IMG/VR virus record: IMGVR_UViG_3300042863_002246
Length of the DNA: 58,695 nucleotides
Source of the DNA: an uncultured virus (IMG/VR IMGVR_UViG_3300042863_002246)
Taxonomy: Duplodnaviria > Heunggongvirae > Uroviricota > Caudoviricetes
Direction: 5' to 3' (one strand)
Part shown: positions 22,686 to 47,899 of the stretch, piece by piece
How the letters are laid out: every line of letters starts with the position of its first letter
How positions within the stretch are numbered: the first letter of the stretch is position 1
Made by a program: the position numbers and the translations under genes
Notes under the pieces: generated by a model
What the model was told of the DNA's origin: nothing
Database searches by the model: none
The model's input: only the letters and a program-made list of their open reading frames with translations

Positions 22686-22964
22686 TTAGTTAGCTTCCAT
22701 TGTTACTGAAAGTCCTGCAGTTTTTAGTTTTTCTTTCATTGTAGAGATTGTATCGTAGTCTCCATATTTCACATCACATTTACCTCTAAAGTGAACTATA
22801 TGTGCACACTGATTTGCTTGTTCCTGCTCATGTTTACATATTTTCATAAGACACGTTATTACCCAATCAAACGAGTTGTAGTCATCATTGTGAAGGTCTA
22901 ATCGATAAGGCTTTGACAGAATTTCTTCAACTTTCGATTCTACTTGTTCTTTAATTTTACCCAT
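22686..22964 (-). CDS. clpS: ATP-dependent Clp protease adaptor ClpS
   Basis: LHNDDYNSFDWVITCL...EQANQCAHIVHFRGKCDVKYG is a ClpS signature of the Bacteroidota-like type. Confidence 0.9.
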   Translation of the reverse strand: MGKIKEQVESKVEEILSKPYRLDLHNDDYNSFDWVITCLMKICKHEQEQANQCAHIVHFRGKCDVKYGDYDTISTMKEKLKTAGLSVTMEAN

Positions 22965-22993
22965 AGTGTATTATCTTATTTTTTGATTATATA

Positions 22994-23527
22994 TTATATA
23001 CTAGATCCTTGAATAGTTGTTTCTGTTTTGTTAACAACGTCTACTATTGTACTTTTGATATCTTGCTCTTTTGCCCATTCTACGAATTTAGGCAAGTGTG
23101 CTTCTCTATCGTCGTAGAACTTCAATTCTTTCACTCCTAATTTTTTGATTGTTCTTTCTAATAAGTTGCATTTGAAAATAAATGTGTCACTTCCCCAGTT
23201 TAAGTGAACTTCATCAAATTCTATGTTGTTGTCTCTTAGAATCTTTTCAACGCCTTCTCTCATACCGGGAACTTTGTCTAATCTACCAGTTGCTAAAATT
23301 ACATAAGCGTCTGGGTCAGCTATTGCTTCCAGATATTTTTGGTAAGTCCATTCGTTTCTTGGAATGTTGAATATCTCATCATCGATAGATTCTGGTTTAC
23401 CCCACCAACCTCTATGTGGCCAATCTGTTCCTGTTTTTTCTTTCCAAACTACTTTTCCATCTTCTGGAAGTGGAGTGTGAAATAATGTGTCGTCAAAATC
23501 AAAACAGATAAGTCTTTTATACTGCAT
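22994..23527 (-). CDS. HAD-superfamily phosphatase (HAD_SAK_1 / RNA-repair-like)
   Basis: FDFDDTLFHTP, WW..PES, LATGR and FYDDR motifs; TATATTTG promoter upstream on the minus strand (23551-23558). Confidence 0.8.
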   Translation of the reverse strand: MQYKRLICFDFDDTLFHTPLPEDGKVVWKEKTGTDWPHRGWWGKPESIDDEIFNIPRNEWTYQKYLEAIADPDAYVILATGRLDKVPGMREGVEKILRDNNIEFDEVHLNWGSDTFIFKCNLLERTIKKLGVKELKFYDDREAHLPKFVEWAKEQDIKSTIVDVVNKTETTIQGSSI

Positions 23528-23600
23528 AATGGTTCGTTTTATTTTATGTACAAATATATATATAATATTTTGATATATAAATTAAAATAGAAGAAAAATT

Positions 23601-24011
23601 ATGAAAATAGATTTAAAAAAGACACTTTTGTATTTTATCGGTGCTTGTTTATTAGTTTCTGTGTTTCTAAACTTCAAAGGTTGTAACAGAGAATCTTTTG
23701 ATAAATTGGAGGAAAAAAACAGATTGTTAGAGAAGACAAGAGATTCTCTTAAATATACAAACCAAAATCTTAAAAAAGAATTTGATAATATTCAAGTGAT
23801 TATTGATAAAAGAGATGCACGTATAGCAGATCTACAGATACAGATAGAAGTATCTAAGCAAAATGTTATGGATTATAAGAATCGCGCGGATAAAGCAAAC
23901 AAAGATTTGATAGAAACGAATAAAAAACTTGAAAATCTTAGAAAGAACCCAATCAAAAGAGACGATGATGACCTTATCAACTCTTTCAAAAACAAACTTA
24001 AAACCCCATGA
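23601..24011 (+). CDS. N-terminal TM + coiled-coil protein (i-spanin-like)
   Basis: Hydrophobic residues ~8-25 followed by a long coiled coil; ATGA overlap with the next gene. Confidence 0.55.
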   Translation: MKIDLKKTLLYFIGACLLVSVFLNFKGCNRESFDKLEEKNRLLEKTRDSLKYTNQNLKKEFDNIQVIIDKRDARIADLQIQIEVSKQNVMDYKNRADKANKDLIETNKKLENLRKNPIKRDDDDLINSFKNKLKTP

Positions 24012-24493
24012 AAATAATATTGAGTATAATGCTTGTTCTTATTTCTTTCCTATCGTATTCTCAGGAATATCCTAAGATTGAACTAAATCAAAAAGGTGAG
24101 AAAGTTGTCATCTTCACTTTAAGTCAGGCACAAAAAATAGACAACGATTTAGAAATACTAAATATTTTAGAAAAGTCTAAAATACAATGTGATAGTTTAA
24201 ATGTTTCCTATATTAAGATAGTTGATGCACAGAACCATCAGATAGTATTACTTGAAAAAAACGTTTCTGAACTAAATTTACAAGTAAATGATAAAGACTC
24301 TCAAATAAACAACCTATCTACTCAGGTAAAAAATCTTGAAGAAAGTAATAAGATATGTGATGAGCAGAAATGTATAAAAGATAAGCAGATGGATGGTCTC
24401 AAAGATGATTTGAAAAAAGAGAAGATTAAAAAGTGGTTATTTGGAGGTGTAGGTCTCGCGGTCGGAATATTGGCAATCTTAATAGCACATTAA
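24008..24493 (+). CDS. Signal peptide + coiled coil + C-terminal hydrophobic anchor (putative spanin partner)
   Basis: MKIILSIMLVLISFLSYS|Q signal peptide; C-terminal WLFGGVGLAVGILAILIA. Confidence 0.55.
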   Translation: MKIILSIMLVLISFLSYSQEYPKIELNQKGEKVVIFTLSQAQKIDNDLEILNILEKSKIQCDSLNVSYIKIVDAQNHQIVLLEKNVSELNLQVNDKDSQINNLSTQVKNLEESNKICDEQKCIKDKQMDGLKDDLKKEKIKKWLFGGVGLAVGILAILIAH

Positions 24494-24553
24494 AAGTGTA
24501 AAAAATGATATTTTTTACTTAATATATAACTATATAAAAAATTAAACCAAAAC

Positions 24554-25252
24554 ATGAAACATATCAGACAATTTGAAAGTTTTAGAGTTCAGAAAAACAG
24601 ACAAGAAATAATCAGCGAAGCTGTTCTTCAAGTGAACGATATCTATAAGGTTAAAACTATGATCGATATTCCACAATCTTTAATCAATTCTTATGTTAAG
24701 AAAGTTAAAGATACTACAGGAAAAAATCTTCGTCAGTTTTTCGGTGATGTTGACATCGCGGAAGAGATTGTAAAATACATAACTCTTAACAATACAGACG
24801 TTGAGAAGATTCCTGGAAACGCTTTAATGGGCGGTGCACAAGGACAAGTTCAAGGACAGGGTCAAGGACAGGTTCAAGTTCAAACTGAAGGTGAGGCACA
24901 AACTCAAGGACAGGAACAAGCTCAACCACAAGCTCAACCACAGGGTCAAGGTCAAGAACAAGCTCAACCACAAGGACAGGGTCAAGAACAAGCTCAACCA
25001 CAAGCACAATCACAAGAAGGTGATTTTGAAGAGCCACAAGCTCAACCACAAGGACAAGGACAGGAACAAGCTCAACCACAGGCACAAGGACAAGCTCAAA
25101 CTGGTCAAGGACAAGCTCAAGGACAGGGTCAAGGACAAGCTCAAGGACAGGGTCAAGGACAAGGACAGGGACAACCACAAGGACAGGGTCAAGCTCAAGG
25201 ACAAGGACAGGGTCAAGAAGAAGATGAAGATGAAGAAGAACTTCCAGCTTAA
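24554..25252 (+). CDS. Probable internal head protein with a long Q/G-rich disordered tail
   Basis: MKHIRQFESF N-terminus; about 125 aa of QG/QA/QP repeats; late motif at 24520. Confidence 0.7.
   Translation: MKHIRQFESFRVQKNRQEIISEAVLQVNDIYKVKTMIDIPQSLINSYVKKVKDTTGKNLRQFFGDVDIAEEIVKYITLNNTDVEKIPGNALMGGAQGQVQGQGQGQVQVQTEGEAQTQGQEQAQPQAQPQGQGQEQAQPQGQGQEQAQPQAQSQEGDFEEPQAQPQGQGQEQAQPQAQGQAQTGQGQAQGQGQGQAQGQGQGQGQGQPQGQGQAQGQGQGQEEDEDEEELPA
24836..25215 (+). repeat. Imperfect tandem repeats encoding GQGQ/EQAQPQ
   Basis: Repeated CAAGGACAGGGT and CAAGCTCAACCA units. Confidence 0.9.
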
Positions 25253-25277
25253 TCAAAAATACTAGTATCTAGAAATT

Positions 25278-25307
25278 AAAAACCTATCAGAAATGATGGG
25301 TTTTTTT
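25278..25307 (+). terminator. Intrinsic terminator
   Basis: AAAAACCTATCA-GAAA-TGATGGGTTTTT. Confidence 0.7.
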
Positions 25308-25323
25308 ATTTAATATATAAAAT

Positions 25324-32001: not shown

Positions 32002-32063
32002 AATATCTATTTTTATGCTAATATATGTATTATTTATTACATCCACAAATTTATATATACTAT

Positions 32064-32747
32064 ATGGAGAGAATAGATAGATTTAATGTATTTGAGGCCA
32101 AAATTGTTCCTTTGAACAGAATGCCCAGAAGTAGCCGAAAACCAGAGAGATCCGGAAGATCCGGAAGATTACTTACTGATGAACAAAAATACTATGATGA
32201 AAACCAAATAGAAGATACAAGTGGTCCAAAACCCGCTATGTTATTTACAGATGTTGTAGGATCTTCTAAAATGTGGTCCGACGATCCACAAACTATGAGC
32301 ATACAACTCGATAAACATTTTAAGATTATGGATAATCTTGCTAGAAAGTATGGTGGTTTTGTGGTTAAAACAATCGGTGACGCCTTTATGGTATATTTTC
32401 CAAAAAACGAAAAGTCATTAGAAAATGCTGTTGATTTTGCGGTAGAGGTAATCAAAATTGAAGAGCTTCCACTTAGAATAGGAATATGCTCTGGTAATAT
32501 GACTGCCAAAAAATGTAGAATACAGAATGTTGAGCTTGTAGACTTTTTTGGAGATGTTGTGAACACTGCATCAAGAATGGAGTCCAAAGTTGCAGAGCAG
32601 GGTGGTATTGCATTTACCTCTGTTGATAATATTGATAATCAAATGGAGTCTATTTCAAAAAAATACAAATTGGTTAAGATAACTGGTAAAGGTATTCCAG
32701 ATTTAAAAGGTGTGAAAGTCGAATTTGCTTATAAGTTAAAAGTATAA
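32064..32747 (+). CDS. Class III adenylate/guanylate cyclase
   Basis: LFTDVVGSS, VKTIGDAFM, LRIGI, DFFGDVVNTASRME; the Lys and Asp specificity residues suggest ATP. Confidence 0.92.
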   Translation: MERIDRFNVFEAKIVPLNRMPRSSRKPERSGRSGRLLTDEQKYYDENQIEDTSGPKPAMLFTDVVGSSKMWSDDPQTMSIQLDKHFKIMDNLARKYGGFVVKTIGDAFMVYFPKNEKSLENAVDFAVEVIKIEELPLRIGICSGNMTAKKCRIQNVELVDFFGDVVNTASRMESKVAEQGGIAFTSVDNIDNQMESISKKYKLVKITGKGIPDLKGVKVEFAYKLKV

Positions 32748-32779: not shown

Positions 32780-33853
32780 TTAGTTTTCTTCCAAAACTTC
32801 TTCGTCTTGTAGAATAGTTCTTACCATTCTATCAACTATTAAATATGGATCTCCGTTAGATGCTGGTCTTCTATCTTCGATATAACCAATCGCATTTGGA
32901 TCGTTTATCGTAGAAGGAATTCTAATAGATTTAGTTCTATCTCCAATACCCCATCCAAAGTCTTTGATAGACGATGTTTCGTTCGCACCGGTTAGTCTTT
33001 CGTCATTGTTCTCTCCATATACCGCTATATGTTCTGCATGAGTCTTCTCAAGCTTCTTACACATTTCGATTGCAATCTCTTTTTTGTTTACTTTGTCTTC
33101 TCTAATATTTTTTGTCGAAAAGTTTACATGCATACCTGAACCATTCCAATCATTTCCTTTAAATGGTTTTGGATCTAATTCGATTCTATAATCAAACTCT
33201 TCACTCAATCTATGTAAAATGTATCTTGAAATCCATAGTTGATCCGCACCGTCTTCTGCAAATACAGTTCCTACTTGATATTCCCATTGTCCTAAAGCAA
33301 CTTCTGCATTTGTTCCGGATATAGAGATTCCTGCATTAAGACAAAGGTCTGTATGTGCTTCTACAAACTCTCTTCCTACTACATTGTTAGCACCAACTGA
33401 ACAATAGTATTCACCTTGTTCTCTTGGCTCATCTTCTGTTGGCCATCCTAATGGTCTATTTGTTTTGTTATCAAAGATAAAATACTCTTGTTCCCATCCA
33501 TACATAGTTTCATCGTCATATTTTTTTAACGATTCGGTCATTTTAACTCTTGTATTACTTTCGTGTGGAGTACCATCAATATTATAAACCTCACAAAGAA
33601 CTAAAATAGAGTTTGTTGTAAATGGATTATGAAAATAGTTTTTAGGAACTAATAGTAATTCTGATTTAGATGTTTCTGCTTGGTATGTTGAAGATCCATC
33701 AAAGTTCCATACTGGTGCTTTTCTCAAACCATTTTTGTATGAATCTAAAATATTTGTTTCATCTTCGATGTGTTTCAGATTTACGACTTTTGTTTTTGTA
33801 CGTATTTGTTGTGTTTTGGCACCATCCAACCAAATATATTCTAACTTTTGCAT
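32780..33853 (-). CDS. glnII: Glutamine synthetase, type II-like
   Basis: LEYIWLDG, WNFDGSSTYQA, EQEY, NAEVALGQWEYQV, DWNGSGMHVNFS, RLTGANET, SIRIP, YIEDRRPASNGDPY. Confidence 0.93.
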   Translation of the reverse strand: MQKLEYIWLDGAKTQQIRTKTKVVNLKHIEDETNILDSYKNGLRKAPVWNFDGSSTYQAETSKSELLLVPKNYFHNPFTTNSILVLCEVYNIDGTPHESNTRVKMTESLKKYDDETMYGWEQEYFIFDNKTNRPLGWPTEDEPREQGEYYCSVGANNVVGREFVEAHTDLCLNAGISISGTNAEVALGQWEYQVGTVFAEDGADQLWISRYILHRLSEEFDYRIELDPKPFKGNDWNGSGMHVNFSTKNIREDKVNKKEIAIEMCKKLEKTHAEHIAVYGENNDERLTGANETSSIKDFGWGIGDRTKSIRIPSTINDPNAIGYIEDRRPASNGDPYLIVDRMVRTILQDEEVLEEN

Positions 33854-34312: not shown

Positions 34313-34656
34313 TTACAGGATTTTACGCGATGTTATTCGCATTTATATTTTCGGAAATATACCATTTTTTCAACAAAAAAAGACTTGATTTAATTTTCAA
34401 GAACAAAGACACTAAAACTATAAGAAAGGTTGACATTGTTTTTTACATGTCAAAACTTTTATCTATATTTTGGCCGATTGTGGGATTGTTTTCCAGTTTT
34501 AGTCATCTATTCCTATTGATAATAGTGATGAATCTAATGAAGTTTGTTTTTTATCATTTAAACGACCACATATATAAAGTATATATTAGTGCTCTTCCTT
34601 GGATGAACGTTGTAGTTTATATAACGATATTATCTTTTAAATTCTTTATACACTAA
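34309..34656 (+). CDS. Small membrane protein (3-4 TM)
   Basis: Several hydrophobic segments; ATGA overlap with the upstream gene. Confidence 0.65.
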   Translation: MITGFYAMLFAFIFSEIYHFFNKKRLDLIFKNKDTKTIRKVDIVFYMSKLLSIFWPIVGLFSSFSHLFLLIIVMNLMKFVFYHLNDHIYKVYISALPWMNVVVYITILSFKFFIH

Positions 34657-35173
34657 AGTTTTTAAGATTTTCTTCAGTTATTATAATGAAAGAAAATCCT
34701 TTTTTGTTACACCAGTTTATCATAGTCTCCCATTTTTGTTTGTTCTTATAAGCCATCTTTAGATCATACTCAAAACTTTTAAGTTTCTTCATTCCTTTTT
34801 CAGGAACTGTAAGTTTACCTTCTGTTAAAGCGATTACCATTTTGTATTCTTTCATAGGCTTAACCTCAACCACTACTTCTTTTAAAACGCCGTCTGCACC
34901 TCTCATTCTATAAAAGAAGTCTGGATAGTATCTATGTGCTTTTATACGTGTATCTCCATTTTCAAAGTGTGTCATCTGATAAGGTATTTCTAAACATTCT
35001 GCACCCCATTGAAATATCTCTTCTTTTAAATCAAGCCATACCATTATCTTCTGTTCCCAAGAACTTCTATAATATACACCACCCTGTGTGTTTAACTTTA
35101 AAACCTTGTCTTTATTGGTTGGTATGAAGTTTCCACCGTGATATCTACTATTGTTAGGTTTAGAATTTATCAT
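34646..35173 (-). CDS. Head completion nuclease (T4 gp4-like, TnsA-type fold)
   Basis: YRSSWE, W.AE...IPY, HRYYPDF, VEVKP, NKQKWE, FIIITE. Confidence 0.9.
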   Translation of the reverse strand: MINSKPNNSRYHGGNFIPTNKDKVLKLNTQGGVYYRSSWEQKIMVWLDLKEEIFQWGAECLEIPYQMTHFENGDTRIKAHRYYPDFFYRMRGADGVLKEVVVEVKPMKEYKMVIALTEGKLTVPEKGMKKLKSFEYDLKMAYKNKQKWETMINWCNKKGFSFIIITEENLKNFSV

Positions 35174-36519: not shown

Positions 36520-38232
36520 ATGGCATCGTATAACTATAACAACAATCAAGAAGGACAGGGCATGGGCTTTGTAAATTCTGCAGTAGAGAATAAAGGTCTT
36601 TTTAGTAGAATACTTAGAACTCTTTCAAACTACGGAATGAACTATGACGATATGATAATTCGAAACCAAGTAGGTATTGGTATAAACGAAGATCCATATG
36701 CAGCCAAAGGAAACTCTATGTACGACTTCTTTTCACAAAGAGCTGTTGCATCGGTTTTAAATAGAAAGTCTATTCCTTACTTAGATAAGGCTTATGCTGA
36801 CAAAAGAAGGATTCTTAGAGAATATTCTATCAAAGACGAAATTCGTGATATGATTAGTGCCGTTGCGGATGAATGTATCGTTTACAATGATGATAGAGAC
36901 TTCTGTTCTCCTAGAGCAATATCAAACGATTATTCTCAAGAAATAAAAGACAAATACCAAGAGTATTTTGAGAAAATCTATAATAAATATGGATTTTCAG
37001 ATAGTATCACTGCTTGGAATATGATAAAAGACTTTCTTATTGATGGTTATGTTGCAGTAGAGATTGTTTATGATGATAAAAAGAAGAATATCATTGCATT
37101 CAACAGACTTAGACCTGAAAGTTTAGTTCCTGCATATGAACCAAATGTAGGACATTTATGGATTCAGTTTCCTGAAGATCCTCAGCTTAGAAGAATATTT
37201 TTGGATTCACAGATTGTATTCATTTCTTATTCTACACAAAATGATTATTCAGAGACTTCTTATATTGAAGGACTTATTAAACCATATAACCAGTTAAAGA
37301 TTCTTGAACAAACTAGAATCATGTTCAACGTAATCAATGCAACTATTTATCAAAAGTTTACTATTCCAATTAAAGGTCTTTCTAGACAAAGAGCGGAAGA
37401 ACAGATTGGTCAGTTGATACATGACTACTCTGAGGAAGTTGAATGGGATGACACACTTGGTACACTTACCTTGAATGGATCTAAACATCTTCCTTATAAC
37501 AAACAAGTTTGGTTTCCTGATGGTGATGCAGGTACTCCTAATATGACATTAGAATCTCCACAAGGACATGACTTAAATGAAGAATCAATGCTTAAGTGGT
37601 TCCACCAGGCACTTAAAAGAGCTAGTAAAATTCCATTGACACGTTTCGAAGGAGAAGGTGGTGGTGGTAATCTAATATCAGATGCTGCTGAGATGACAAG
37701 AGATGAGATTAAGTTCCATAACTTTATATCTAGAATACGAGCAAACTTTAAAGAACTTATAGTTAAACCACTTAAACTACAGATGCTTATCGAGTTTCCT
37801 GAGTTGAAAGAAGATGAGATTGTTCTTAATCAAATGGATATAATCTTCTACACTAATCAAATATTTGAAGAGTGGAAAAAGATAAACAATTTGTCTAAAA
37901 AGGCGGAAGCACTTGGAACTCTTACTGCAGTAATGAATGGTGAGAAACCTTACTTCCATATCGAATGGTTGATGGATAATGTCTTCAAACTTACTCCTGA
38001 AGAGAAAGCGGAAAACCAAAAATACTGGGCAAAAGAGGCTGCTGGTGCCGGTGCTGGACCTGCGGGTGCTGCTGGTGCCGAAGGTGGTGCCCCTGCACAA
38101 GGTGGTGAAGGTGGTGAAGCTCCTGCTGAAGGTGGACAAGCAGCCGCTGAAGCTCCTGCACAGGGTGGACAAGCAGCTCCTGAAGCTCCTGCCGAAGGTG
38201 GTGCCGAAGGTGGTGCAGAATTTGAATTCTAA
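36520..38232 (+). CDS. Portal protein (T4 gp20-like) with an A/G/E/P-rich C-terminal tail
   Basis: FLIDGY, KPYNQLKILE, ASKIPLTRF, EMTRDEIKFHNFISRIR..F. Confidence 0.95.
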   Translation: MASYNYNNNQEGQGMGFVNSAVENKGLFSRILRTLSNYGMNYDDMIIRNQVGIGINEDPYAAKGNSMYDFFSQRAVASVLNRKSIPYLDKAYADKRRILREYSIKDEIRDMISAVADECIVYNDDRDFCSPRAISNDYSQEIKDKYQEYFEKIYNKYGFSDSITAWNMIKDFLIDGYVAVEIVYDDKKKNIIAFNRLRPESLVPAYEPNVGHLWIQFPEDPQLRRIFLDSQIVFISYSTQNDYSETSYIEGLIKPYNQLKILEQTRIMFNVINATIYQKFTIPIKGLSRQRAEEQIGQLIHDYSEEVEWDDTLGTLTLNGSKHLPYNKQVWFPDGDAGTPNMTLESPQGHDLNEESMLKWFHQALKRASKIPLTRFEGEGGGGNLISDAAEMTRDEIKFHNFISRIRANFKELIVKPLKLQMLIEFPELKEDEIVLNQMDIIFYTNQIFEEWKKINNLSKKAEALGTLTAVMNGEKPYFHIEWLMDNVFKLTPEEKAENQKYWAKEAAGAGAGPAGAAGAEGGAPAQGGEGGEAPAEGGQAAAEAPAQGGQAAPEAPAEGGAEGGAEFEF

Positions 38233-38280: not shown

Positions 38281-38757
38281 TTATGCTGCTGTTTCATATG
38301 TGTCTACATAGAAGTAAACTACTTTATTATCTATTATATGCGGCCTTAAATCGACGGTCATTGAATTTTCCATAAGTTCTTTTACTACTTTACCCATAGG
38401 AGTTGACAAAACTTTACATCTTAAAGTTAGTTTTTCCACTTTGTTTTCTTTTAAAATAAAAGACATTGATTTTATTGTAAGTACACTCATTTGTAGTGAA
38501 AGAATATTTCCACTATTTCCAAGCTGAGCAAACATAGATATTGATTCTATATCGAATTGTATTTTTTTACCAGATTCTAAAATACTTGTTAGTCTAATAT
38601 CTCTTTTGAACGAAGTCCACTCTTTGTATCTAGACATCAAATCTTCAAATTGATCCAAAGTATTGTTTTGTAACAATACTTCGTAATCAAAATATTCTAG
38701 ATTATCATCTGATTCAGAAGGATCTAAATGAGACCAATCTTTGAATAACTGTCCCAT
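38281..38757 (-). CDS. Degenerate, catalytically inactive paralogue of the gp21-type prohead protease
   Basis: KVLSTPMGKVVKELM matches gp21 ILxTPxGKxxKxL. The His and Ser catalytic positions are replaced (FAQLGNS vs YGEFDHP; DLRP vs SSRA). Confidence 0.6.
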   Translation of the reverse strand: MGQLFKDWSHLDPSESDDNLEYFDYEVLLQNNTLDQFEDLMSRYKEWTSFKRDIRLTSILESGKKIQFDIESISMFAQLGNSGNILSLQMSVLTIKSMSFILKENKVEKLTLRCKVLSTPMGKVVKELMENSMTVDLRPHIIDNKVVYFYVDTYETAA

Positions 38758-40640
38758 TAGAATCTCATGAAGTTTATCTGTTTCTTCTCTAAATCTACTG
38801 ATTTAACAACCGCTTTAATAGGATCTCCCAATCTAATCTGTTCTCCAAACTCATTGTATGCTAAATATTTATCTACATCTGCAGTCCATTTCCCATTAAG
38901 AGTTTCTAATCTTATCAAACCTTCACATTTGTTTTCTGTAATCTCTACATAGATTCCTCTATCCATTACTCCGGTAACAATACCATCGAATACCTGACCG
39001 ATTCGGTCCTGAAGATATTCAGCTTGTTTGTATTTGATAGAATCTCTTTGTGCTCTGGATGCCACAAGTTCTCTAGCAGAACACCATTTTGCTTGTTCTT
39101 CAATCTTTGTAGGATTTCCTTGCTTTCCAGTCGTTAGTTTATCAAATAATATTCTATGTGTTATTAAATCTGGATATCTTCTGATTGGAGAAGTAAAGTG
39201 TGAATAGTGTGTGAATCCTAATCCATAGTGTCCTATGTTCTTTATAGTATATACTGCCTTCGACATTGATCTCGTAACCAAAGTCTCAATCATATTTTCT
39301 TCAGGAGATCCTTTTATCTCTTTTAAAAGGTGATTAAGGTTATTTTTCAGTACATCTCCTTCCTCATCTAACTCAAGCTTGTAACCAAAATTGGTACATA
39401 TACTTTGAAGAGATGCTAGCTTGTCACCGTTTGGTTTGTCGTGTACTCTATATACGTTGTGCCATTGGTCTTTTGCTAAAAGTTTGGCAACTGATTTGTT
39501 TGCCAATAACATATATTCTTCAATCAATTTGTTTGCATCTTTCTGTTCTTTGAAGTAGACTCCGATTGGTTTTTTGTCATCTTCTGCAAGTTTGAACTTT
39601 ACTTCAATACCACCCATTTCGATAGATCCATTTTTTATTCTAGTTCTTCTGATTTTTTTAGCCAATGTGTCTAATTGTCTAATCTCTTTATGATAGTCTC
39701 CATCTAATCCTTCGATTATCTCTTGTGCTTCTTCGTATGCATATCTTCTGTCAGAGTGTATTACAGTCTTTCCGTGCCAAGTATCTTTTATCTTTCCGTC
39801 TTTATCTAATGTAAATACTGTTGAAAATGCCAATCTATCCACATTTGGTTTAAGTGAGCATATTCCATTAGAAAGTCTTTCGGGAAGCATAGGTACACAT
39901 CTGTCTACTAAATAAACTGATGTTGCTCTTTTGAACGCTTCTTTATCTAATTCTGTTCCAAACTTTACATAGTGTGCAACGTCTGCAATATGTACTCCTA
40001 CTTTTATGTTATTAGGATCTCTCATATCTATTGAGATGGCATCATCAAAATCTTTTGCGTCTACAGGATCTATTGTTATAGTAGTCACGTCACGCATATC
40101 CTTTCTTGATTTAATTTCTTTTTCGGATATTATCTCAGGAACAAGTTCTGCTTCGTTAAGTACTTCTTGTGGAAATTCAACAGGTAGTCCATATTCGTAC
40201 ATAATGGCATTCATTTCCGTATTGTTATCTCCAACAAATCCAAGTATCTTAGTAATCTTTCCTCTTGGTGATTTTTTGTCAAGATCCCAGTCTAAAAACT
40301 CTACTAACACTTTTTGTCCATTTTCAACATCCGACTTTCCTTTTATGTAGAAGTCTACCGCCATTTTAGAACTATCGGGTACTACAAAGATTGTATCGTT
40401 TTTTACTTGAGCAGTTCCCACAAACTCTGTTTTAAATCTTGAAGTTGTTTCTAATACTTTACCTTCTAGTTTTTTTTGTCCTTGGAATATCTCTACTCGA
40501 GCAGTATCTAAGTGAAGTGCATTAGCAGTCTTCTTTTTATGTATAAAGATTTCTTTACCATCTACTTTTATATTGGCGTTTCCTGACGTGGAGAATTCTA
40601 CTTGCGTTTCGAATATGTCTCCTTCTTTAATTTTATTCAT
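38757..40640 (-). CDS. rnr: Ribonuclease R (RNB family: CSD-CSD-RNB-S1)
   Basis: TIDPVDAKDFDDA, GVHIADV, RATSVYL, HFTSPIRRYPD and a C-terminal S1 domain; start moved to MNKIKEG. Confidence 0.93.
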   Translation of the reverse strand: MNKIKEGDIFETQVEFSTSGNANIKVDGKEIFIHKKKTANALHLDTARVEIFQGQKKLEGKVLETTSRFKTEFVGTAQVKNDTIFVVPDSSKMAVDFYIKGKSDVENGQKVLVEFLDWDLDKKSPRGKITKILGFVGDNNTEMNAIMYEYGLPVEFPQEVLNEAELVPEIISEKEIKSRKDMRDVTTITIDPVDAKDFDDAISIDMRDPNNIKVGVHIADVAHYVKFGTELDKEAFKRATSVYLVDRCVPMLPERLSNGICSLKPNVDRLAFSTVFTLDKDGKIKDTWHGKTVIHSDRRYAYEEAQEIIEGLDGDYHKEIRQLDTLAKKIRRTRIKNGSIEMGGIEVKFKLAEDDKKPIGVYFKEQKDANKLIEEYMLLANKSVAKLLAKDQWHNVYRVHDKPNGDKLASLQSICTNFGYKLELDEEGDVLKNNLNHLLKEIKGSPEENMIETLVTRSMSKAVYTIKNIGHYGLGFTHYSHFTSPIRRYPDLITHRILFDKLTTGKQGNPTKIEEQAKWCSARELVASRAQRDSIKYKQAEYLQDRIGQVFDGIVTGVMDRGIYVEITENKCEGLIRLETLNGKWTADVDKYLAYNEFGEQIRLGDPIKAVVKSVDLEKKQINFMRF

Positions 40641-41025
40641 TATCTTTTTTCTTTTTTGATATATTGTCGACTCCGTATTTTTCAATCAGAGTGTTTTTCA
40701 TTTTTGACAATACTTTTTTATTCTGTATGGGATAGTCTACTCCGAAGTTTTTTCTTAGAGTTTCTTTTCGTTTGACCTCTGAGCATTTTCTACACGAATA
40801 GTCTCCCCAGTTTTTGTTGTCGTATTTTAAGTAGTTTTTGTAGATGACTTCTTTTTCAGTGCCACATCCATCACATTTGCATTTTACTTTATAATGTGAT
40901 CCGTTTGGTAGAAGTCCAACGGGAATGATTATTATCTCACCTATTGAAATATCGTATCCTAAGTCCTCATAGTATTGGTAGTTGGACTCGTTTATTTTAA
41001 TTTCAATTTCTCTTGTAAGTATCAT
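40633..41025 (-). CDS. Zinc-finger / 'KYGVD' repeat DNA-binding protein of the homing-endonuclease-associated type, with no nuclease domain
   Basis: GSHYKVKCKCDGCG...CRKC...KETLRKNFGVDYPIQ...KNTLIEKYGVDN. Confidence 0.7.
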   Translation of the reverse strand: MILTREIEIKINESNYQYYEDLGYDISIGEIIIIPVGLLPNGSHYKVKCKCDGCGTEKEVIYKNYLKYDNKNWGDYSCRKCSEVKRKETLRKNFGVDYPIQNKKVLSKMKNTLIEKYGVDNISKKKKDNE

Positions 41026-41222
41026 GTTTCTATTTTGGTGGATATAAAAAATCCACCCATTCTTTTTATAAAAAAACATGATTTAGTTTTGTTAATGGTG
41101 ATTTTTTTTTATAAAAAAATAAAAATAAGACACTTCTATAAAAAATCCACCTTTATAATTTCTACGGTTTTGAAGGTTTATATATACTCTAATAATTATA
41201 CAAAAAAAAACACAACTATTTC

Positions 41223-43325
41223 ATGAAACCAGTTCTAATTGTAGAAAATTCAACGAACTCTCTTATAAGAGAAAGTTCAAGCACTGGTAAGAAGGACTAT
41301 ATTTTGGGTGGTACATTCACTGAATTCGGCGTTAAAAACCGTAATGAGAGAATCTACACTGCTGCAAAATTCCTTCCTGCTTTAGAGGAGATGAATGAAA
41401 GAATGAACAATCTTGGAATTGTCTACGGTGAATTTGATCATCCAGACGTTTTCGATACTTCACTTTCAAGAGCTTCTCACGTAATTACGAAAGCTAATTA
41501 CGTAAAAGAATCAAACTTGGTAGAAGGTGAAATCAGATTATTAAGCACTTATTGGGGAAAAGAGGCAAAATCGTTAGTAGACGATGGTTGTCCTATTTTC
41601 GTTTCATCTAGGGCTGCAGGTATTACTGAATCTGATGGCACTGTATCATTAAAAAAACTATTTACTTACGACATCGTTGCTGACCCAGGTTTTGCATCGG
41701 CTAAAATGAGTGTAAAGGTTCTTAATGAGTCACTTGGTTATGACAACCCAAAATCTAACTTTAGGATATATGATTTATCCAACGAGTCAAAAACGGAAGA
41801 GTTATTTAATATGAACAACAACGAATTTGTTACTAAACAACAACTAACTGACTACTCTCAGTATTTGGTTAAAGAGTTGGCATCAACTAAAAAAGAAGTT
41901 AAGACTGCCATTACTAAAGGGAATATGAACCCTAAAAAACTTGAGCAATTGCTTGAGTATTACGATGAATTGAACAACACTAATTCACAAGTAGCTAAAT
42001 ATTTAGATTACTTAGCTGAGAAAGTTCAAATTATGGTAAATGAAAACAAGTCTTTGAAAGAAACTACAGAGAAATTAATCAAACATAACGATTATTTAGC
42101 TGAAAATCTTGAAAAGGCTGTAAACTATTCTGAATACTTAGCAGAAAACTTAGATAAGAACATTGCTTATTCTGAATATGTTGCTGAAAACTTAGACAAA
42201 AACATTGCTTATTCTGAGTATGTTGCTGAAAACGTAGACAAAAACATTTCTTACACAGAATATGTTGCTGAAAACTTAGACAAAAACATTGCTTACTCTG
42301 AATACTTAGCAGAAAACTTAGACAAAAACATTGCTTACTCTGAATACATTGCTGAGAGCTTAGACAAATCTATTGCTTATGGTGAGTATATCGCAGAACA
42401 CGTTGATAACTCTATTGCTTACTCTGAATACTTAGCAGAACACGTTGAAGGTAACATCGCTTACTCTGAATACATTGCTGAACATTTAGATGATAATATT
42501 GCTTACTCTGAATACATTGCTGAAAATTTAGACAAATCTATTAACTACCAAGGATTAATCGTTGAGAAGTTAAACGGTGGTAAATTGAACGAATCAGAAG
42601 GAGCATTCCCATCATTAAATGCTGCAGGATTTGAAGATCTTGAAGATGAAAACGATGATGAAAATGAAAATGCATATGGATCTGAAGAAGAAGACGAAGA
42701 TGAAAACGGAATCGCAGAAATGACTCCTAATCATGCATACGCACACGAAGATAATGAAGATGAGAATGAAGATGAGGATTGTGGCCCAGGTGTTACAGGA
42801 AACTCAGATTCAGAATTATCAGAATCTATTGATAAATTAATCGAAGAAGCTAAAAAACGTAAAGTTTCTGAGACATCAGATTTGAATTTCTTGAAATTCA
42901 TGTCTAAATCACAAGTTGATAGCTACTATGCTTTAACTAACGAAGAACAAGAGACAGTAAAACTACACATAAACGAAAGTAGCTACTTCACACAAAAAGA
43001 AGTATTGTCTTTAATCTCTGAAGCGTTATCAACTAAAAACGAATCTCTTGAAGAAAGAGTAATCAGAATGATGCCTGAGAACACAAAGGCTATCTGGAAT
43101 CAGTTAAATGAGTCTGCAAAAAAATCTATCATTTCACAAGCTAGATTATATCCTGCAGAAGTATTAATGACTGAAGGTCAAGTTGAACATTTTTGGGCAA
43201 CAAGAAACCTAAAAAAGAATGAATCTGTATCTAAAAAACTTGTTTCTCACGAAGCTCTTATCCAAGAAGATAAGTTGTCTGATAATGACGTAACAGCTAT
43301 TATGGAAAGATTCAAAAACATTTAA
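41223..43325 (+). CDS. Prohead protease (T4 gp21-like) fused to a scaffold-like repeat/coiled-coil region
   Basis: KNRNERIY, GEFDHP (His), VSSRAAG (Ser), TYDIVADPGF (Asp), then ~520 aa of helical, repeat and acidic sequence; directly upstream of the MCP. Confidence 0.9.
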   Translation: MKPVLIVENSTNSLIRESSSTGKKDYILGGTFTEFGVKNRNERIYTAAKFLPALEEMNERMNNLGIVYGEFDHPDVFDTSLSRASHVITKANYVKESNLVEGEIRLLSTYWGKEAKSLVDDGCPIFVSSRAAGITESDGTVSLKKLFTYDIVADPGFASAKMSVKVLNESLGYDNPKSNFRIYDLSNESKTEELFNMNNNEFVTKQQLTDYSQYLVKELASTKKEVKTAITKGNMNPKKLEQLLEYYDELNNTNSQVAKYLDYLAEKVQIMVNENKSLKETTEKLIKHNDYLAENLEKAVNYSEYLAENLDKNIAYSEYVAENLDKNIAYSEYVAENVDKNISYTEYVAENLDKNIAYSEYLAENLDKNIAYSEYIAESLDKSIAYGEYIAEHVDNSIAYSEYLAEHVEGNIAYSEYIAEHLDDNIAYSEYIAENLDKSINYQGLIVEKLNGGKLNESEGAFPSLNAAGFEDLEDENDDENENAYGSEEEDEDENGIAEMTPNHAYAHEDNEDENEDEDCGPGVTGNSDSELSESIDKLIEEAKKRKVSETSDLNFLKFMSKSQVDSYYALTNEEQETVKLHINESSYFTQKEVLSLISEALSTKNESLEERVIRMMPENTKAIWNQLNESAKKSIISQARLYPAEVLMTEGQVEHFWATRNLKKNESVSKKLVSHEALIQEDKLSDNDVTAIMERFKNI
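42099..42550 (+). repeat. About 11 tandem 42-bp (14-aa) repeats, AENLDKNIAYSEY[LVI]
   Basis: Visible in both DNA and protein. Confidence 0.92.
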
Positions 43326-43410: not shown

Positions 43411-45174
43411 ATGTCACACATTAGAATAGACAAAGCGAAAGCTACAAAGAAATGGGCTCCTGTTCTTGAGAACATGGGAGTTACTGGTGATAGAGTTGAA
43501 TGGATGGCGGAATACGCTGAGTTTCACTCAATCAACGAAAACGCATACGTAAACGCATCTAACGTTGCTGGTATGGGTGGTGTATTTGCTGCACAACCAG
43601 GAAGTTATGCTGGACAAACAAACGGTGGTACTTTAGCTACTGCAGCTTCAGTTGGAACAATCGGTTCAGGTGATGTTGGTCAAAACTTATTGCCAGTTGC
43701 AATGAAAATTGCTGCTCAAACAATCGGTTTAGACTTAGTTGCTGTTAAACCAACTCCAGGTCCGAAAATCGATTTACTTTACATCGATTTCCAATATGAT
43801 GATACTAGATTAGGTGCATCTGACGAAAGACCACAAGTTTTCAAATTAAATGTTGGTGCATCTGCATCTGTATTTAATGCTGCAATCCAAACAGGTGTTG
43901 GTTCAACAATCGCACAAAATCAAGGTGGATTACAAAATGGTAGATATTTCTACTCAATCAATGGTGCTGGTACTCAGTCATTAGGTAACCCAACAATCTT
44001 GAGCGGAAACGTTGCTGGTGCAACAGTTTCAACTACTGAGCCTTTACAAAAAACTGGTGTTGTTGAGTTCTTAGGATTCTCTAGAATTGATGGTTTCCCA
44101 ATGTTCAGAGCGTTTAGACAAGCTAACACTGCACACACTGCAGTTGATCAAGCTAACCTTGCTTGGACATTAGATCCATCAAGAAACACATTTACTGCTA
44201 CTGCATCTATGACTTCTCAAATCACTCACCTTGCTGGTCTTACTATTGCATCTGGAACTGTGACTATTGAGTTAATCTCTGCATTAGAAGATCATATCCC
44301 AGGTTTCTCAACAAACTTTGGTGGTGTTCCTTCTGGATCTGCACAAGGTTCTTACCCAATGTCAAGAAAAGAAGATGATGATACTTATGCTGGTGTTATC
44401 GGACCAAAAATCTCTTCTAAAACTATCGCAGTTGGTACTATCGAAGTATCTTCAGCTTTAAGAAGAACAGAAATCGAAGATATCAAAGCTAACACAGGTA
44501 TGGATATCGTTCAAAAAATGGAATCTATCCTTGTTAATGAGTTGTCTCAAACAATCTCTAAACAAATCGTTGCTAAAATCTTCGAAATGGGTGCTTTAAA
44601 CAGAACTCTTGCTCCATTAGCAAGTGGGAAAATTGCAGTTACTGCTACTGCTTCTACTATCTTTGACTTAGATACTGCTTATGTTGGTGCTATGAATGGT
44701 GGTGAAACTACTCACGCTGTACAAAGAAAATTGATCACGAAAATTGCTCATGCTTCTAACTACATCGCAACAGAAGGAAGGGTAGGACCTGCTCAATATC
44801 TTGTAACAAACGGAGGTTTGGCTGCGGCACTTCAAGATATCGCTGGTTATACTGTAAACCCAGTTAAATCTAAATTAAACGGACAAGGTCAGTTGTACCC
44901 TGTAGGTTCTATCGGAGATATCGCTATCTATGTTGATCCTTACATGAAATATAACGACAACAGAATCGTTTTAGGAAGAAAAAACAACCCAGATCAACCA
45001 GGTATCATTTTCGTACCTTATTTGATGGCTCAATCTATCTCAGTTATTTCTGAAGCGACTTTCGCACCAAGAATGTTACTAAGATCTAGATATGCAGTTG
45101 CTGAAGTTGGTTGGTTCCCACAAAAACAATTTATGACTTTAGTTATAACTGATAACTCTCAGTACTTAAACTAA
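43411..45174 (+). CDS. Major capsid protein (T4 gp23-like)
   Basis: KKWAPVLE, DLVAVKP, NELSQTISKQI, IYVDPY, GIIFVPY, TFAPRMLLRSRYA. Confidence 0.95.
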   Translation: MSHIRIDKAKATKKWAPVLENMGVTGDRVEWMAEYAEFHSINENAYVNASNVAGMGGVFAAQPGSYAGQTNGGTLATAASVGTIGSGDVGQNLLPVAMKIAAQTIGLDLVAVKPTPGPKIDLLYIDFQYDDTRLGASDERPQVFKLNVGASASVFNAAIQTGVGSTIAQNQGGLQNGRYFYSINGAGTQSLGNPTILSGNVAGATVSTTEPLQKTGVVEFLGFSRIDGFPMFRAFRQANTAHTAVDQANLAWTLDPSRNTFTATASMTSQITHLAGLTIASGTVTIELISALEDHIPGFSTNFGGVPSGSAQGSYPMSRKEDDDTYAGVIGPKISSKTIAVGTIEVSSALRRTEIEDIKANTGMDIVQKMESILVNELSQTISKQIVAKIFEMGALNRTLAPLASGKIAVTATASTIFDLDTAYVGAMNGGETTHAVQRKLITKIAHASNYIATEGRVGPAQYLVTNGGLAAALQDIAGYTVNPVKSKLNGQGQLYPVGSIGDIAIYVDPYMKYNDNRIVLGRKNNPDQPGIIFVPYLMAQSISVISEATFAPRMLLRSRYAVAEVGWFPQKQFMTLVITDNSQYLN

Positions 45175-45264: not shown

Positions 45265-45663
45265 ATGAGAAATCTAAGTACATTCAAACGATTCTTAAAT
45301 GAAGGTAAAAAAGATAAGTTTCCAGATATTAAAAAGTCTGAAATAGATGGATTTATAGTCTATTTAGGTAGAGATGCGAAATCAAATGACCATCTTACTT
45401 TCAATGTTGCAGACGAAGAAGATATATGGATGCACGTTAAAGGTGTACCAGGTAGTCACGTAGTTATTAGAGTAAGAGAGAATCTTCCTACAGAAACAAC
45501 TATTAAAAAGGCAGCAGAACTTGCTAAGAAGAATAGTAAAGCAAAGGATAAAGAAAATGCGATTGTTGTTTATTGTCAAAGAAAATTCGTTAAGAAAGAT
45601 CCTGGTATGAATGATGGACAAGTCAAAGTTGACTATGTCAATGCTCACGATATTAATATATAA
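45265..45663 (+). CDS. Stand-alone NFACT-R (RqcH/FbpA C-terminal RNA-binding, DUF814) domain protein
   Basis: IVYLGRDAKSNDHLT...DIWMHVKGVPGSHVVI...AAELA..NSKA...VVYCQRKFVKK.PG...GQV. Confidence 0.9.
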   Translation: MRNLSTFKRFLNEGKKDKFPDIKKSEIDGFIVYLGRDAKSNDHLTFNVADEEDIWMHVKGVPGSHVVIRVRENLPTETTIKKAAELAKKNSKAKDKENAIVVYCQRKFVKKDPGMNDGQVKVDYVNAHDINI

Positions 45664-45680
45664 ACAAAATAAAAAAGAAT

Positions 45681-47051
45681 ATGGCAGAACAAAAATTACC
45701 TAAAGTAGAGTTTTCCAAAGAGCTTACAGATATGTTAAAAACACTTGAAAAGAAAGGAAACTATCTTGCATTTGAGCTTATGTGGATGACAGAACCTGAT
45801 GCTAAATATTTCAATGGTTTAAAAATAAAGAAAGTAGATGTTTCTAAAGTAGACTGGTGCTTTAACGTAACATTGGAAAATGGGAATAAAAACGATATGA
45901 AGATTGGAAAGTTCATCAGATATTTCTTTCAAAATATTATAAACGAATATGAGATAACTAAATTCTCAAAGTTATATAATAGTATGAAAGGTGGTGGTAA
46001 ACCTCATGAAGATGGTAATCCTATTGAAGTAGAGAAGTTTGTTTATAGTCCTAAGAATCCAAGAAAGACTTTCTTATCACTTGTTACTAAAACATATCCA
46101 CACGGAAATGAAGATGAAGTTCTTCAATTTTTACCAACATTACAAAAAGATGTTGTTGGAAACTACTACACTATTATAGGTGGACACACAGAAACAATGT
46201 TTACTTGTCACTTAGATACTGCCGATAGAACTCAAATGACAACCACACTTTTTAGTATAAAAGAAGGAGAAGATGAGATTATCGTAACAGATGGCACTAC
46301 CGTATTAGGTGCAGATGATAAATCTGGAACTACCGTAATGCTTTATATGATGGAACATAACGTACCAGGATTATACTATTTCTTCATTGGTGAAGAAAGA
46401 GGTGGTATTGGTTCACATGCACTTGCAGATGTTTATGAAAGTGTAGACTATTTAAAAGACGTTAAAAGATGTGTTTCTTTTGATAGAAGAAACTATTACT
46501 CTATAATAACATCACAAATGGGTACTGATTGTTGCTCTCCAGAGTTTGCAGATGCTTTATGTGCGGCTTATACTGCAAATGGTTTAAGTATGAAACCAGA
46601 TGATACAGGTATCTATACCGATTCTGCATCATTTTTAGATGATATTCCAGAATGTACTAACGTTTCTGTTGGTTATTTCAATGAGCATACCGGAAAAGAA
46701 AGACAAAATATGACTTTCCTTACTAAACTATGTGAGGCATCTGTTAAGATAGATTGGAAATCACTTCCAACTAAAAGATCATTAGAAGAACAGATTTCTT
46801 ACAAAAAACAATCTTTAGAAGCAAAAGCTAAACATAAAGACCTTTTAGAAGATGTTAAGAAATCAATCGTTTCTTTAGACAGACTTATTTCTGTAGATGG
46901 TGGTGTAACTTATATGTGTCTTGATTTAGAAGGATCTGATATAGGAACAATACACGATTCACTTGTTTCTCTTTCTATGATATTAAAAAAACATGGTGTC
47001 GACCAAGAGGTAGTCTTTGATGAGACATATTTAAAAATAGCACTTAAATAA
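45681..47051 (+). CDS. M28-family zinc peptidase with N- and C-terminal extensions
   Basis: CHLDT, LGADDKSG, GEERGGIGS, SFDRR, YTDS, NVSVGYFNEHT. Confidence 0.88.
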   Translation: MAEQKLPKVEFSKELTDMLKTLEKKGNYLAFELMWMTEPDAKYFNGLKIKKVDVSKVDWCFNVTLENGNKNDMKIGKFIRYFFQNIINEYEITKFSKLYNSMKGGGKPHEDGNPIEVEKFVYSPKNPRKTFLSLVTKTYPHGNEDEVLQFLPTLQKDVVGNYYTIIGGHTETMFTCHLDTADRTQMTTTLFSIKEGEDEIIVTDGTTVLGADDKSGTTVMLYMMEHNVPGLYYFFIGEERGGIGSHALADVYESVDYLKDVKRCVSFDRRNYYSIITSQMGTDCCSPEFADALCAAYTANGLSMKPDDTGIYTDSASFLDDIPECTNVSVGYFNEHTGKERQNMTFLTKLCEASVKIDWKSLPTKRSLEEQISYKKQSLEAKAKHKDLLEDVKKSIVSLDRLISVDGGVTYMCLDLEGSDIGTIHDSLVSLSMILKKHGVDQEVVFDETYLKIALK

Positions 47052-47052
47052 G

Positions 47053-47463
47053 ATGAAACTAAAAAAATATAACAACTATCTTAACGAAGATAAGTACGAA
47101 GACGAATACTTTGACGAATATGGTTCTCAGGATGATTATGAAGGACAGGATGATGCACAAGGTGATGATGATATGGAACACCTTTTGTATCTATTAAGAA
47201 CGTTTTTAAAGGATTCTGGTATAAACAATGTAAGTTTGAAGAACTCGGACTCTAGTATAAAATTAGAGATTGTTTTAAAAACAAAAGAAAGATTGACTGA
47301 TGTAATAAAAACTTTTGCAGTTCTTAAAAAACTATCAAATGATATAATGGCAGATTATGATGCAGAGTTTGATATCTGGGAAACCAAACAAGGAGATCCG
47401 TTGTTGATTATCGATTATTATTCACCAGAATATGGTGATGATGAAGATGGAGCACCTTTTTAA
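47053..47463 (+). CDS. Acidic hypothetical protein with a capsid-targeting-like N-terminus
   Basis: MKLKKYNNYLNE followed by a D/E-rich tract. Confidence 0.65.
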   Translation: MKLKKYNNYLNEDKYEDEYFDEYGSQDDYEGQDDAQGDDDMEHLLYLLRTFLKDSGINNVSLKNSDSSIKLEIVLKTKERLTDVIKTFAVLKKLSNDIMADYDAEFDIWETKQGDPLLIIDYYSPEYGDDEDGAPF

Positions 47464-47474
47464 ATAAAAAAAGT

Positions 47475-47513
47475 AAACTTTTTTAGGTATTTAGAATATT
47501 ATATATATCTTTG
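47475..47513 (+). promoter_or_regulatory. Overlapping promoter elements upstream of the tmRNA
   Basis: AAAC-N18-TATTA, TTATATATA and TATCTTTG (47506-47513) overlap. Confidence 0.55.
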
Positions 47514-47539
47514 TTAAAAGAAATAACAATTACAAACAT

Positions 47540-47899
47540 GGGGGTGTCATAGAATCGCCTAGCAGAGTAGTGGTAGTTATGCAGGTATCGGGTTGTCTAG
47601 TGTCCGATTAACAAATTAAGAGGTAACGTCGTAAATGGCAAAACAAATGAAGTAGGAACTCGTGAAGATTTAGTAGCGGCCCTAAAAGCAATTGGAGCTA
47701 ACACTCCAGAATTAGTTTAATAAGAGAACTAATCAAAAAAATTCTCCGACTGTATCACGCAGTAAATGTGAAAACCATTTTGTTAGAGTTTGGGTTAAAA
47801 CTAAATATTTTGTGAGTTTAGAAAAACATCAATAAGCCTGTGAATGAATGATTATTGTTAACTGTATAGTACATGCCGGGCAGTGCGGCATCACTTCCA
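47540..47899 (+). ncRNA. ssrA: tmRNA (one-piece)
   Basis: 5' GGGGGTG pairs with 3' CACTTCC (G3:U70), followed by discriminator A. T-arm ATGCCG-GGCAGTG-CGGCAT. P2 pairing GCAGG/CCTGT. pk1-like pairings TCGGG/TCCGA and GTTGTCT/AGGTAAC. Resume context TAAAT-GGC, tag ORF 47637-47720. Length 360 nt, terminator immediately downstream. Confidence 0.9.

Follow-up and report, generated by a model that had tools for sequence, protein, structure and literature searches.

A predicted one-piece tmRNA of unusual make, with NFACT-R and peptidase genes, beside the capsid gene of a huge T4-like phage

Transfer-messenger RNA (tmRNA; SsrA, Rfam RF00023) and its protein partner SmpB rescue ribosomes stalled on non-stop messages and tag the nascent chain, and among the systems considered here this is the only coupling that is established mechanistically. 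We analyzed a 58,695-nucleotide stretch of DNA from an uncultured virus (IMG/VR record IMGVR_UViG_3300042863_002246), called the window below, which is a piece of a huge T4-like ("Mahaphage"-type) phage. The window contains what comparative analysis of homologues predicts to be a one-piece tmRNA of unusual make, starting exactly at 47540 and ending at 47902, downstream of a stand-alone NFACT-R gene and a peptidase gene.

Phage tmRNAs are known. In the sections of these papers cited here, tmRNA is reported in huge phages (Al-Shayeb et al. 2020, PMC7162821) from a survey that used ARAGORN (PMC7162821), and for Mar_Mega_1 (PMC9723777), and the tmRNA of phage G is given the tag AKLNITNNELQVA (PMC12484599). 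With phage tmRNAs and SmpB already in print, a tmRNA variant that evades the detectors seems undescribed: in the literature we found no description of one, nor of phage stand-alone NFACT-R genes. The NFACT-R domain itself is known from bacterial RqcH and from eukaryotic CCDC25 and Jlp2. According to the cited part of a preprint, yeast Jlp2, an NFACT-R-only protein, directly frees peptides from ribosome-bound peptidyl-tRNA, and its H44 (H41 in CCDC25) is essential; the preprint also asks if release-factor activity extends to further NFACT-R domains that bear the histidine (10.1101/2025.09.04.673968).

Comparative evidence for a variant tmRNA

The predicted RNA gene is made up of the following parts:

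47540..47902, plus strand: predicted variant one-piece tmRNA gene, 363 nt including the discriminator A47899 and CAA at 47900-47902
47540..47546, plus strand: 5' strand of the acceptor stem, GGGGGUG, partner CACUUCC at 47892-47898; pair 3 is G:U
47587..47624, plus strand: pseudoknot PK1, with P3 at 47587-47591/47604-47608 and P4 at 47595-47598/47621-47624
47637..47723, plus strand: predicted tag frame, resume codon GGC at 47637, 27 codons (GKTNEVGTREDLVAALKAIGANTPELV), stop codons TAA TAA at 47718-47723, no start codon
47750-47771: pseudoknot PK2, supported by covariation in the 16-sequence alignment
47873..47891, plus strand: T-arm analogue, a 6-bp stem (47873-47878/47886-47891) with the 7-nt loop GGCAGUG
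47905..47936, plus strand: intrinsic-terminator-like hairpin followed by a T run, directly 3' of the RNA end

An earlier sequence-only reading of the window had placed a tmRNA at 47540 and proposed that the phage encodes a ribosome-rescue RNA. Both claims are borne out by the comparison of homologues, though ARAGORN and Rfam are negative in the window. A single-sequence fold of the window RNA already pairs GGGGGUG at 47540 with CACUUCC at 47892-47898. The region has 4 terminator-like sites, and shuffled sequence averages 0.3.

Homologues are present in LR745206.1, LR756502.1, and IMG/VR contigs, and we collected them by two routes. A search with a conserved 16-mer gave 37 viral loci, with 12 chance matches and the incomplete L003 dropped. 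The second route used the major capsid protein (MCP), the anchor of the conserved gene order, to fetch 80 related loci, in 57 of which an nhmmer profile located the RNA. We aligned 48 distinct homologues (391-408 columns), excluding L082, which ends at a contig edge. The helix covariation statistics below refer to 16 distinct sequences, and the acceptor, tag, and frame counts refer to all 48.

On the 16 sequences, RNAalifold gave 58 pairs, 22 of them compensatory. The named structure with PK1 and PK2 has 80 pairs, with 94% of cells paired. Both sides change in 35 of these 80 pairs, compared with 4 to 10 after the 3' partners are slid by 1 to 3 columns, and none of 500 shuffles equaled the observed value. 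The elements run in the order P1, interrupted P2, PK1, tag frame, PK2, two more covarying hairpins, and T-stem, the two extra helices lying at alignment columns 262-289 and 299-321. All 7 bp of the acceptor stem form in 48/48 homologues, as does G3:U, the alanine identity pair; six acceptor-stem variants occur, and pairs 5 and 6 show compensatory change. P2 is a long interrupted helix that covaries. Within PK1, P3 is invariant (16/16) and P4 has both-side changes in three of its four pairs (95% of cells paired). The 6-bp T-stem has both-side changes in five of six pairs, with 96.9% of cells paired.

The predicted tag frame is open for 27 to 29 codons in all 48 homologues, and the other two frames are open in none. 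The homologues encode 34 distinct tag peptides, and their insertions and deletions are solely of 3 or 6 nt. The resume codon, 13 nt downstream of P4 of PK1, is GGC in 36, GGA in 11, and GAC in 1, and the alignment has no conserved start codon ahead of the frame. The tag ends in V or A in 47 of the 48, and the stop codon is enclosed by a local hairpin in 44.

Compared with SsrA (RF00023) and SmpB, the phage RNA shares the G3:U acceptor, P2, a PK1 that shortly precedes a tag frame lacking a start codon, a hairpin around the stop codon, a hydrophobic tag end, and, in the relatives, an SmpB encoded in the same genomes. It differs in its unusual T-loop, its mostly unencoded CCA, an SmpB gene that is not adjacent, and a tag of 27 to 29 residues (13 to 15 by the resume codon that ARAGORN would choose) unlike the listed tags.

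We searched five relatives for partner genes (385-642 kb each, including W01, W02, G002, G003, and G004; CheckV 95-98% for three), all from a single clade. SmpB is present in 5/5 (E values of 1e-50 to 1e-54), and none carries a canonical tmRNA above the Rfam cut-off (0/5; the only hit, of 8.6 bits, is on the W02 copy). In W01, G002, G003, and W02, the four records compared, more than 100 kb separates SmpB from the RNA, and the W01 SmpB open frame has a basic, K/R-rich C terminus. These loci answer the search for smpB proposed in the sequence-only reading: the relatives carry it elsewhere in the genome. A member of the CCA-adding enzyme family is also found in 5/5. Proteolysis genes accompany the tmRNA, as had been suggested, with ClpS in 5/5, a ClpA/C-like two-AAA ATPase of about 710 residues in 5/5, and ClpP in 4/5.

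Transcript data offer a further hint. The stretch is partly found in four metatranscriptome runs, one marine and three from lake water (the latter maybe one campaign). Among the contigs listed, those limited to the RNA gene have word depths of 1025-2342 (X2), 195 (X3), and 9-116 (X4), and those of flanking open reading frames (ORFs) in X2 and X3 have depths of 2.8-13. The X3 and X4 pieces are 0-3 letters off the window. One X4 contig begins at 47530 directly after adapter letters, which is a hint at most of the RNA's start. These depths hint that the tmRNA is an abundant stable RNA.

We consider it likely that the RNA is a variant tmRNA used for trans-translation, that it belongs to a local cluster, and that RNase R and ClpS are separate accessories. 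We infer its charging and tagging, the fate of the tagged proteins, and the hydrolase activity of NFACT-R as follows. Phage SmpB and the phage CCA-adding enzyme family member would serve the tmRNA, which would be charged with alanine, enter stalled ribosomes, and append a phage-specific tag of 27 to 29 residues ending in V or A. Tagging would free the ribosome and mark the unfinished protein, and the tag would act as a degron read by a Clp-type protease. NFACT-R may hydrolyze peptidyl-tRNA on split large subunits, by analogy with yeast Jlp2.

Neighboring and accessory genes

Upstream of the RNA lie four genes on the same strand:

43411-45174, plus strand: MCP, gp23 type, Pfam PF07068, 2.3e-29
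45265-45663, plus strand: NFACT-R protein, 132 residues, PF05670, 3.6e-17, 63.3 bits against a cut-off of 29.8
45681-47051, plus strand: metallo-aminopeptidase of clan MH, M42/M20-like, 456 residues, phrog_4191 "peptidase", 5.9e-66
47053-47463, plus strand: ORF136, acidic N terminus and alpha/beta core of about 95 residues; phage-only

The stand-alone NFACT-R gene that had been read at 45265 is confirmed by its Pfam score. Among solved structures, the top match is to B. subtilis RqcH, in its NFACT-R domain (2.5e-17), and CCDC25 matches at 2.2e-6. Across 48 distinct phage homologues, with identities as low as 32%, the motifs D-x-W-x-H and G-[ST]-H never vary. Like Jlp2 and CCDC25, the phage protein is small and essentially a single NFACT-R domain, in whose conserved cavity motif a histidine is invariant; unlike them, it is nearer in sequence to bacterial RqcH and has no CCDC25-like C-terminal coiled region. 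It has its NFACT-R domain in common with the B. subtilis RqcH-RqcP system, as well as the motif D-I-W-x-H...P-G-S-H-V-V-I, but it is without NFACT-N, HhH, and coiled coil, and NFACT_N is found in 0/5 relatives. Because the phage protein is NFACT-R only and NFACT_N is missing from all five, alanine tailing is not encoded.

The peptidase had been named M28 at 45681. A peptidase it is, by the match to phrog_4191; the family name did not hold, since Pfam PF04389 scores 13.9 bits against a cut-off of 21.3 and the M28 protein LapA appears only at Foldseek rank 49. With a sub-threshold Pfam M28 score and fold matches to M42 and M20, the M28 label is valid at the clan level only. A shorter relative in L110 passes Pfam M28 (25.9 against 21.3 bits). 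The predicted structure (predicted local distance difference test score, pLDDT, 85.5) has as top Foldseek matches TET1 (2wyr, 4.8e-10) and a tripeptidase (3rza, 7.5e-10), and PepT (3gb0) matches at 6.5e-6 over the HxD...GADDK...GEE segment. Residues H177, D179, D212, D213, E238, E239, D268, and H336 are invariant in 35 peptidase sequences and make up the clan MH ligand pattern of H-x-D, a bridging D, E-E, and a distal D and H; the assignment of each residue to a metal is putative. The phage enzyme thus shares fold, metal, and catalytic motifs with TET (M42) and PepT (M20), and differs in carrying additional domains at both termini, in having ORF136 as a partner that is either separate or fused, and in scoring below the Pfam cut-offs.

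ORF136 is probably that partner, and its binding to the peptidase is predicted by modeling. In L059 (8484-10325) it is fused to the peptidase C terminus in a protein of 614 residues (ORF136 profile, 1.6e-25). The model of the peptidase-ORF136 complex scored 0.74, against 0.00 for the best control, with contact at peptidase residues 416-453; of 157 solved complexes, 116 attain this score mark, as do 2 of 215 mismatched pairs. Three runs agreed in at least 66% of contacts, with a partner pLDDT of at least 77. The ORF136 core is predicted as alpha-beta-beta-alpha-beta-beta (pLDDT about 90). It has no Pfam, NCBIfam, or PHROG hit, its fold has no Foldseek match in the PDB at E<=1e-3, and in the ESM Atlas it matches only viral hypothetical clusters, all under 0.9. 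An hhalign comparison of ORF136 with the peptidase gave a probability of only 0.4%.

The claim that NFACT-R, peptidase, and tmRNA lie within 2.7 kb directly after the MCP agrees with the measured span (45265-47902, 2.64 kb). In the relatives the order is MCP-[NFACT-R]-peptidase-[ORF136]-RNA-[ORF98]-NADAR. The physical cluster is limited to NFACT-R, peptidase, ORF136, and tmRNA; RNase R and ClpS sit 7-25 kb away. Among the 57 RNA-bearing loci, NFACT-R (scored by tblastn, E<=1e-5) and ORF136 are each present in 47. Most of the 23 loci without an RNA match end at a contig edge. In L058, L064, L065, and L118 no RNA was found in the fetched span despite about 5.9 kb of downstream sequence, and in the first three of these an inverted NADAR gene, of the kind described below for L070, stands at the end of the fetched span.

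In the window, as in most relatives, a NADAR-domain gene stands 3' of the tmRNA, here at 48330-48848. It also matches the NCBIfam riboflavin-intermediate N-glycosidase domain, with the anti-phage NADAR family below cut-off.

Two further genes named in the sequence-only reading, RNase R at 38757 and ClpS at 22686, are both genuine:

38757-40685, minus strand: RNase R-type 3'-5' exoribonuclease, 642 residues, short ends; OB_RNB, CSD2, RNB, and S1 (Pfam)
22686-22964, minus strand: ClpS adaptor, 92 residues, Pfam PF02617, 8.7e-19, 67.5 bits against a cut-off of 23

The C-terminal basic tail of RNase R links the enzyme to trans-translation. The phage protein has the CSD-CSD-RNB-S1 arrangement of bacterial RNase R and scores above the equivalog cut-off (NCBIfam TIGR02063, 634.3 bits against 597.85), but at 642 residues it is without both terminal extensions. 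The E. coli-type model PRK11642 (813 positions) aligns at 93-723 only, with both ends missing, at 345.9 bits against a cut-off of 982. ClpS aligns to E. coli ClpS (1mbu) with the N-D-D and V-H positions kept, and differs from it at two pocket positions, T to N and M to F. Its membership in the ClpS family, with a two-AAA Clp ATPase in 5/5 relatives and ClpP in 4/5, resembles the ClpS-ClpA/ClpC-ClpP system. In the relatives RNase R and ClpS are lost or relocated independently, and we read them as accessories, one for RNA turnover and one for Clp proteolysis, rather than as components of a single machine.

A DUF7487/homing-endonuclease-like gene stands beside RNase R in the window (40633-41079). 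Beside ClpS, 22994-23527 encodes a "Swiss Army Knife" RNA-repair HAD domain (PF10307, 1e-9) that also matches, weakly, a polynucleotide-kinase PHROG.

Alternative readings

A more ambitious form of the favored reading is a private disposal route orthogonal to the host, in which tmRNA and SmpB have co-evolved, the tag is read solely by a phage Clp (ATPase and ClpP, tuned by ClpS), NFACT-R acts as in Jlp2, and the aminopeptidase with ORF136 recycles the products. We hold this to be unlikely. If true, the route would clear ribosomes stalled by the phage's destruction of host mRNA or by host nucleases while leaving host quality-control sensors unfed, and NFACT-R would be the first Jlp2-like peptidyl-tRNA hydrolase release factor outside eukaryotes.

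The sequence-only reading had gone further and joined tmRNA, NFACT-R, peptidase, RNase R, and ClpS into one co-selected kit that seizes trans-translation, RqcH alanine tailing, and protease targeting and might sustain translation when host toxins cut mRNA or tRNA, which we judge quite unlikely. All five genes are real; tmRNA, SmpB, NFACT-R, ClpS, and the ClpA/C-like ATPase each occur in 5/5 relatives, with RNase R and ClpP each in 4/5, and NFACT-R, peptidase, and tmRNA adjoin in 47/57 RNA-bearing loci. However, the relatives are a single clade and may simply have inherited these genes together, and the distribution is patchy rather than that of a five-gene unit. The proposal that both rescue branches are rewired fails on the missing NFACT-N and coiled coil, as an NFACT-R-only protein cannot alone add alanine tails. 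The suggested search for peptidyl-tRNA hydrolase and RNA ligase genes returned none in the relatives (Pth 0/5, RtcB 0/5). RNase R is missing from G004 and in W02 stands about 160 kb away from the RNA, and its lack of E. coli-type ends counts against a direct link to the tmRNA. ClpS lies about 25 kb away amid unrelated genes.

NFACT-R does not track the tmRNA strictly either. We re-examined six of the ten loci scored NFACT-R-less with a hidden Markov model (HMM) of the family. L059 has a divergent homologue that retains both histidines; the homologues in L102, L080, and L098 no longer carry the invariant histidines; and in L097 and L110 the family HMM found no homologue. The tmRNA is intact in these last five loci, so NFACT-R is dispensable for tmRNA retention.

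Several observations weigh against the favored reading, in which the RNA serves trans-translation. ARAGORN calls no tmRNA gene anywhere in the window and is negative in 79 of the 80 related loci. Rfam gives the window no hit at gathering score, gives none among 11 homologous loci, and in 47000-48400 at E<=10 gives no tmRNA family, only chance-level leader and small-RNA matches near the terminator. The T-loop, GGCAGUG or GGCAGUA, departs from the usual consensus, and the discriminator A is followed by CAA in 39, CUA in 7, and CCA in 2 of the 48 homologues, leaving CCA unencoded in 46. It is because of this departing T-loop and mostly unencoded CCA that ARAGORN and Rfam miss the tmRNA. PK3 and PK4 could not be assigned from the alignment. 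The frame remains open for 4 to 32 codons upstream of the chosen resume codon and, in the single locus that it recognizes (L125), ARAGORN takes a later GCC in the same frame as the resume point with "Tag not identified"; thus, we infer the resume position, and the tag could have 13 to 15 residues instead of 27 to 29. Variable sites in the first 16 codons number 10, 8, and 11 by codon position, with no clear third-position excess; RNA helices also constrain these codons. The depth of a contig gauges expression poorly, and the contigs do not reveal RNA ends. The five relatives being one clade, the 5/5 counts are not independent events. Pfam scans of the window ORFs gave no SmpB, in agreement with the sequence-only reading, nor was it found in the record nearest to the window (G001, 73 kb, CheckV completeness estimate 16), so SmpB is presumed for the window's phage from its relatives. 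Phage H57, the first of the invariant histidines, may correspond to Jlp2 H44 by way of CCDC25, which is a lead only.

ARAGORN also called no tmRNA in L001, L002, or at the SmpB loci of the relatives. The one homologue that it does call (L125:10110-10476) is read in the same frame as the family. Its T-arm, UCCGG-AUCGUUA-CCGGA, is unlike that of the family, and these tRNA-like ends satisfy ARAGORN; PK1, tag, and remainder fit the family profile. The L125 RNA may be an intermediate form.

The non-canonical T-loop, the CCA unencoded in 46/48, the failure of the window RNA to match RF00023 or ARAGORN, and the absence of a third-position excess would also suit an RNA derived from tmRNA that performs no trans-translation, such as a decoy for host SmpB, alanyl-tRNA synthetase, or EF-Tu. 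Such an RNA might also be a structured one, regulatory or stable, with a tag that is never translated. We find this very unlikely, as the frame stays open in 48/48 homologues through 34 different peptides with length changes of whole codons only, its hydrophobic V or A end is kept in 47/48, a hairpin loop holds the stop codon in 44/48, the G3:U pair is kept in 48/48, and the five relatives keep SmpB while having no other tmRNA.

The least probable alternative, that the grouping is a by-product of layout in which RNA, NFACT-R, and peptidase merely occupy a permissive slot behind the capsid gene that gathers mobile and accessory genes and have no functional tie to one another, draws on DUF7487/homing-endonuclease-like genes inserted between MCP and peptidase in L080, L097, L102, and L110 (lineages with NFACT-R decayed or absent), on the RNA-ORF98-NADAR block inverted relative to the capsid block in L070 (13193-13578, minus strand), and on the variable presence of NFACT-R and ORF136, but the peptidase adjoins the RNA in 57/57 loci, the gene order is retained down to 68% MCP identity, and a member of a ribosome-rescue family is an unlikely chance neighbor of a tmRNA.

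If the RNA is a tmRNA, as we favor, the family bears on how such genes are counted. Since surveys relied on ARAGORN, which misses 79 of these 80 loci, genomes in which SmpB looks orphaned may harbor an unseen tmRNA, and phage trans-translation systems are undercounted. The 48 natural variants indicate that T-loop, encoded CCA, and tag length can change, with G3:U, PK1, and the tag frame fixed, and they can inform models of how SmpB and the ribosome are recognized and help to improve detectors. A private tag of 27 to 29 residues also raises the question of which protease degrades phage-tagged proteins, and an NFACT-R protein with invariant histidines is a candidate for Jlp2-type peptide release in the bacterial world.

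Phage setting and other genes of the window

Besides the MCP, three T4-like morphogenesis genes mark the window:

20489-22642: large terminase
36520-38232: portal
41223-43325: head maturation protease

For the DNA surrounding the tmRNA, the sole matches in the phage collection are LR745206.1 (634,780 bp) and LR756502.1 (642,428 bp), at 69-72% identity. In the cited part of the huge-phage study, the Mahaphage clade holds all of its genomes above 634 kb, with Bacteroidetes as predicted hosts (PMC7162821). LR745206.1 and LR756502.1 appear to be members of that clade.

Two of the five relatives carry a short ORF with an RF-1 domain. These open frames of 174-178 residues, candidates for ArfB-like rescue factors, contain the RF-1 (GGQ) domain at W01:48139-48459 and W02:107309-107629; W01 and W02 are the largest of the five genomes, and the other three gave no such frame.

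Elsewhere in the window, a protein with an adenylate/guanylate cyclase catalytic domain (32025-32747) is encoded convergently with a glutamine-synthetase-like protein (32780-33853) in the middle of the structural region. Among small ORFs upstream of the portal, 34646-35173 encodes a protein with a TnsA-like endonuclease N-terminal domain (PF08722, 7.5e-13). Toward the end of the window, 55439-58372 encodes a 977-residue protein with six stretches of collagen triple-helix repeats (Pfam Collagen, 3.6e-63).

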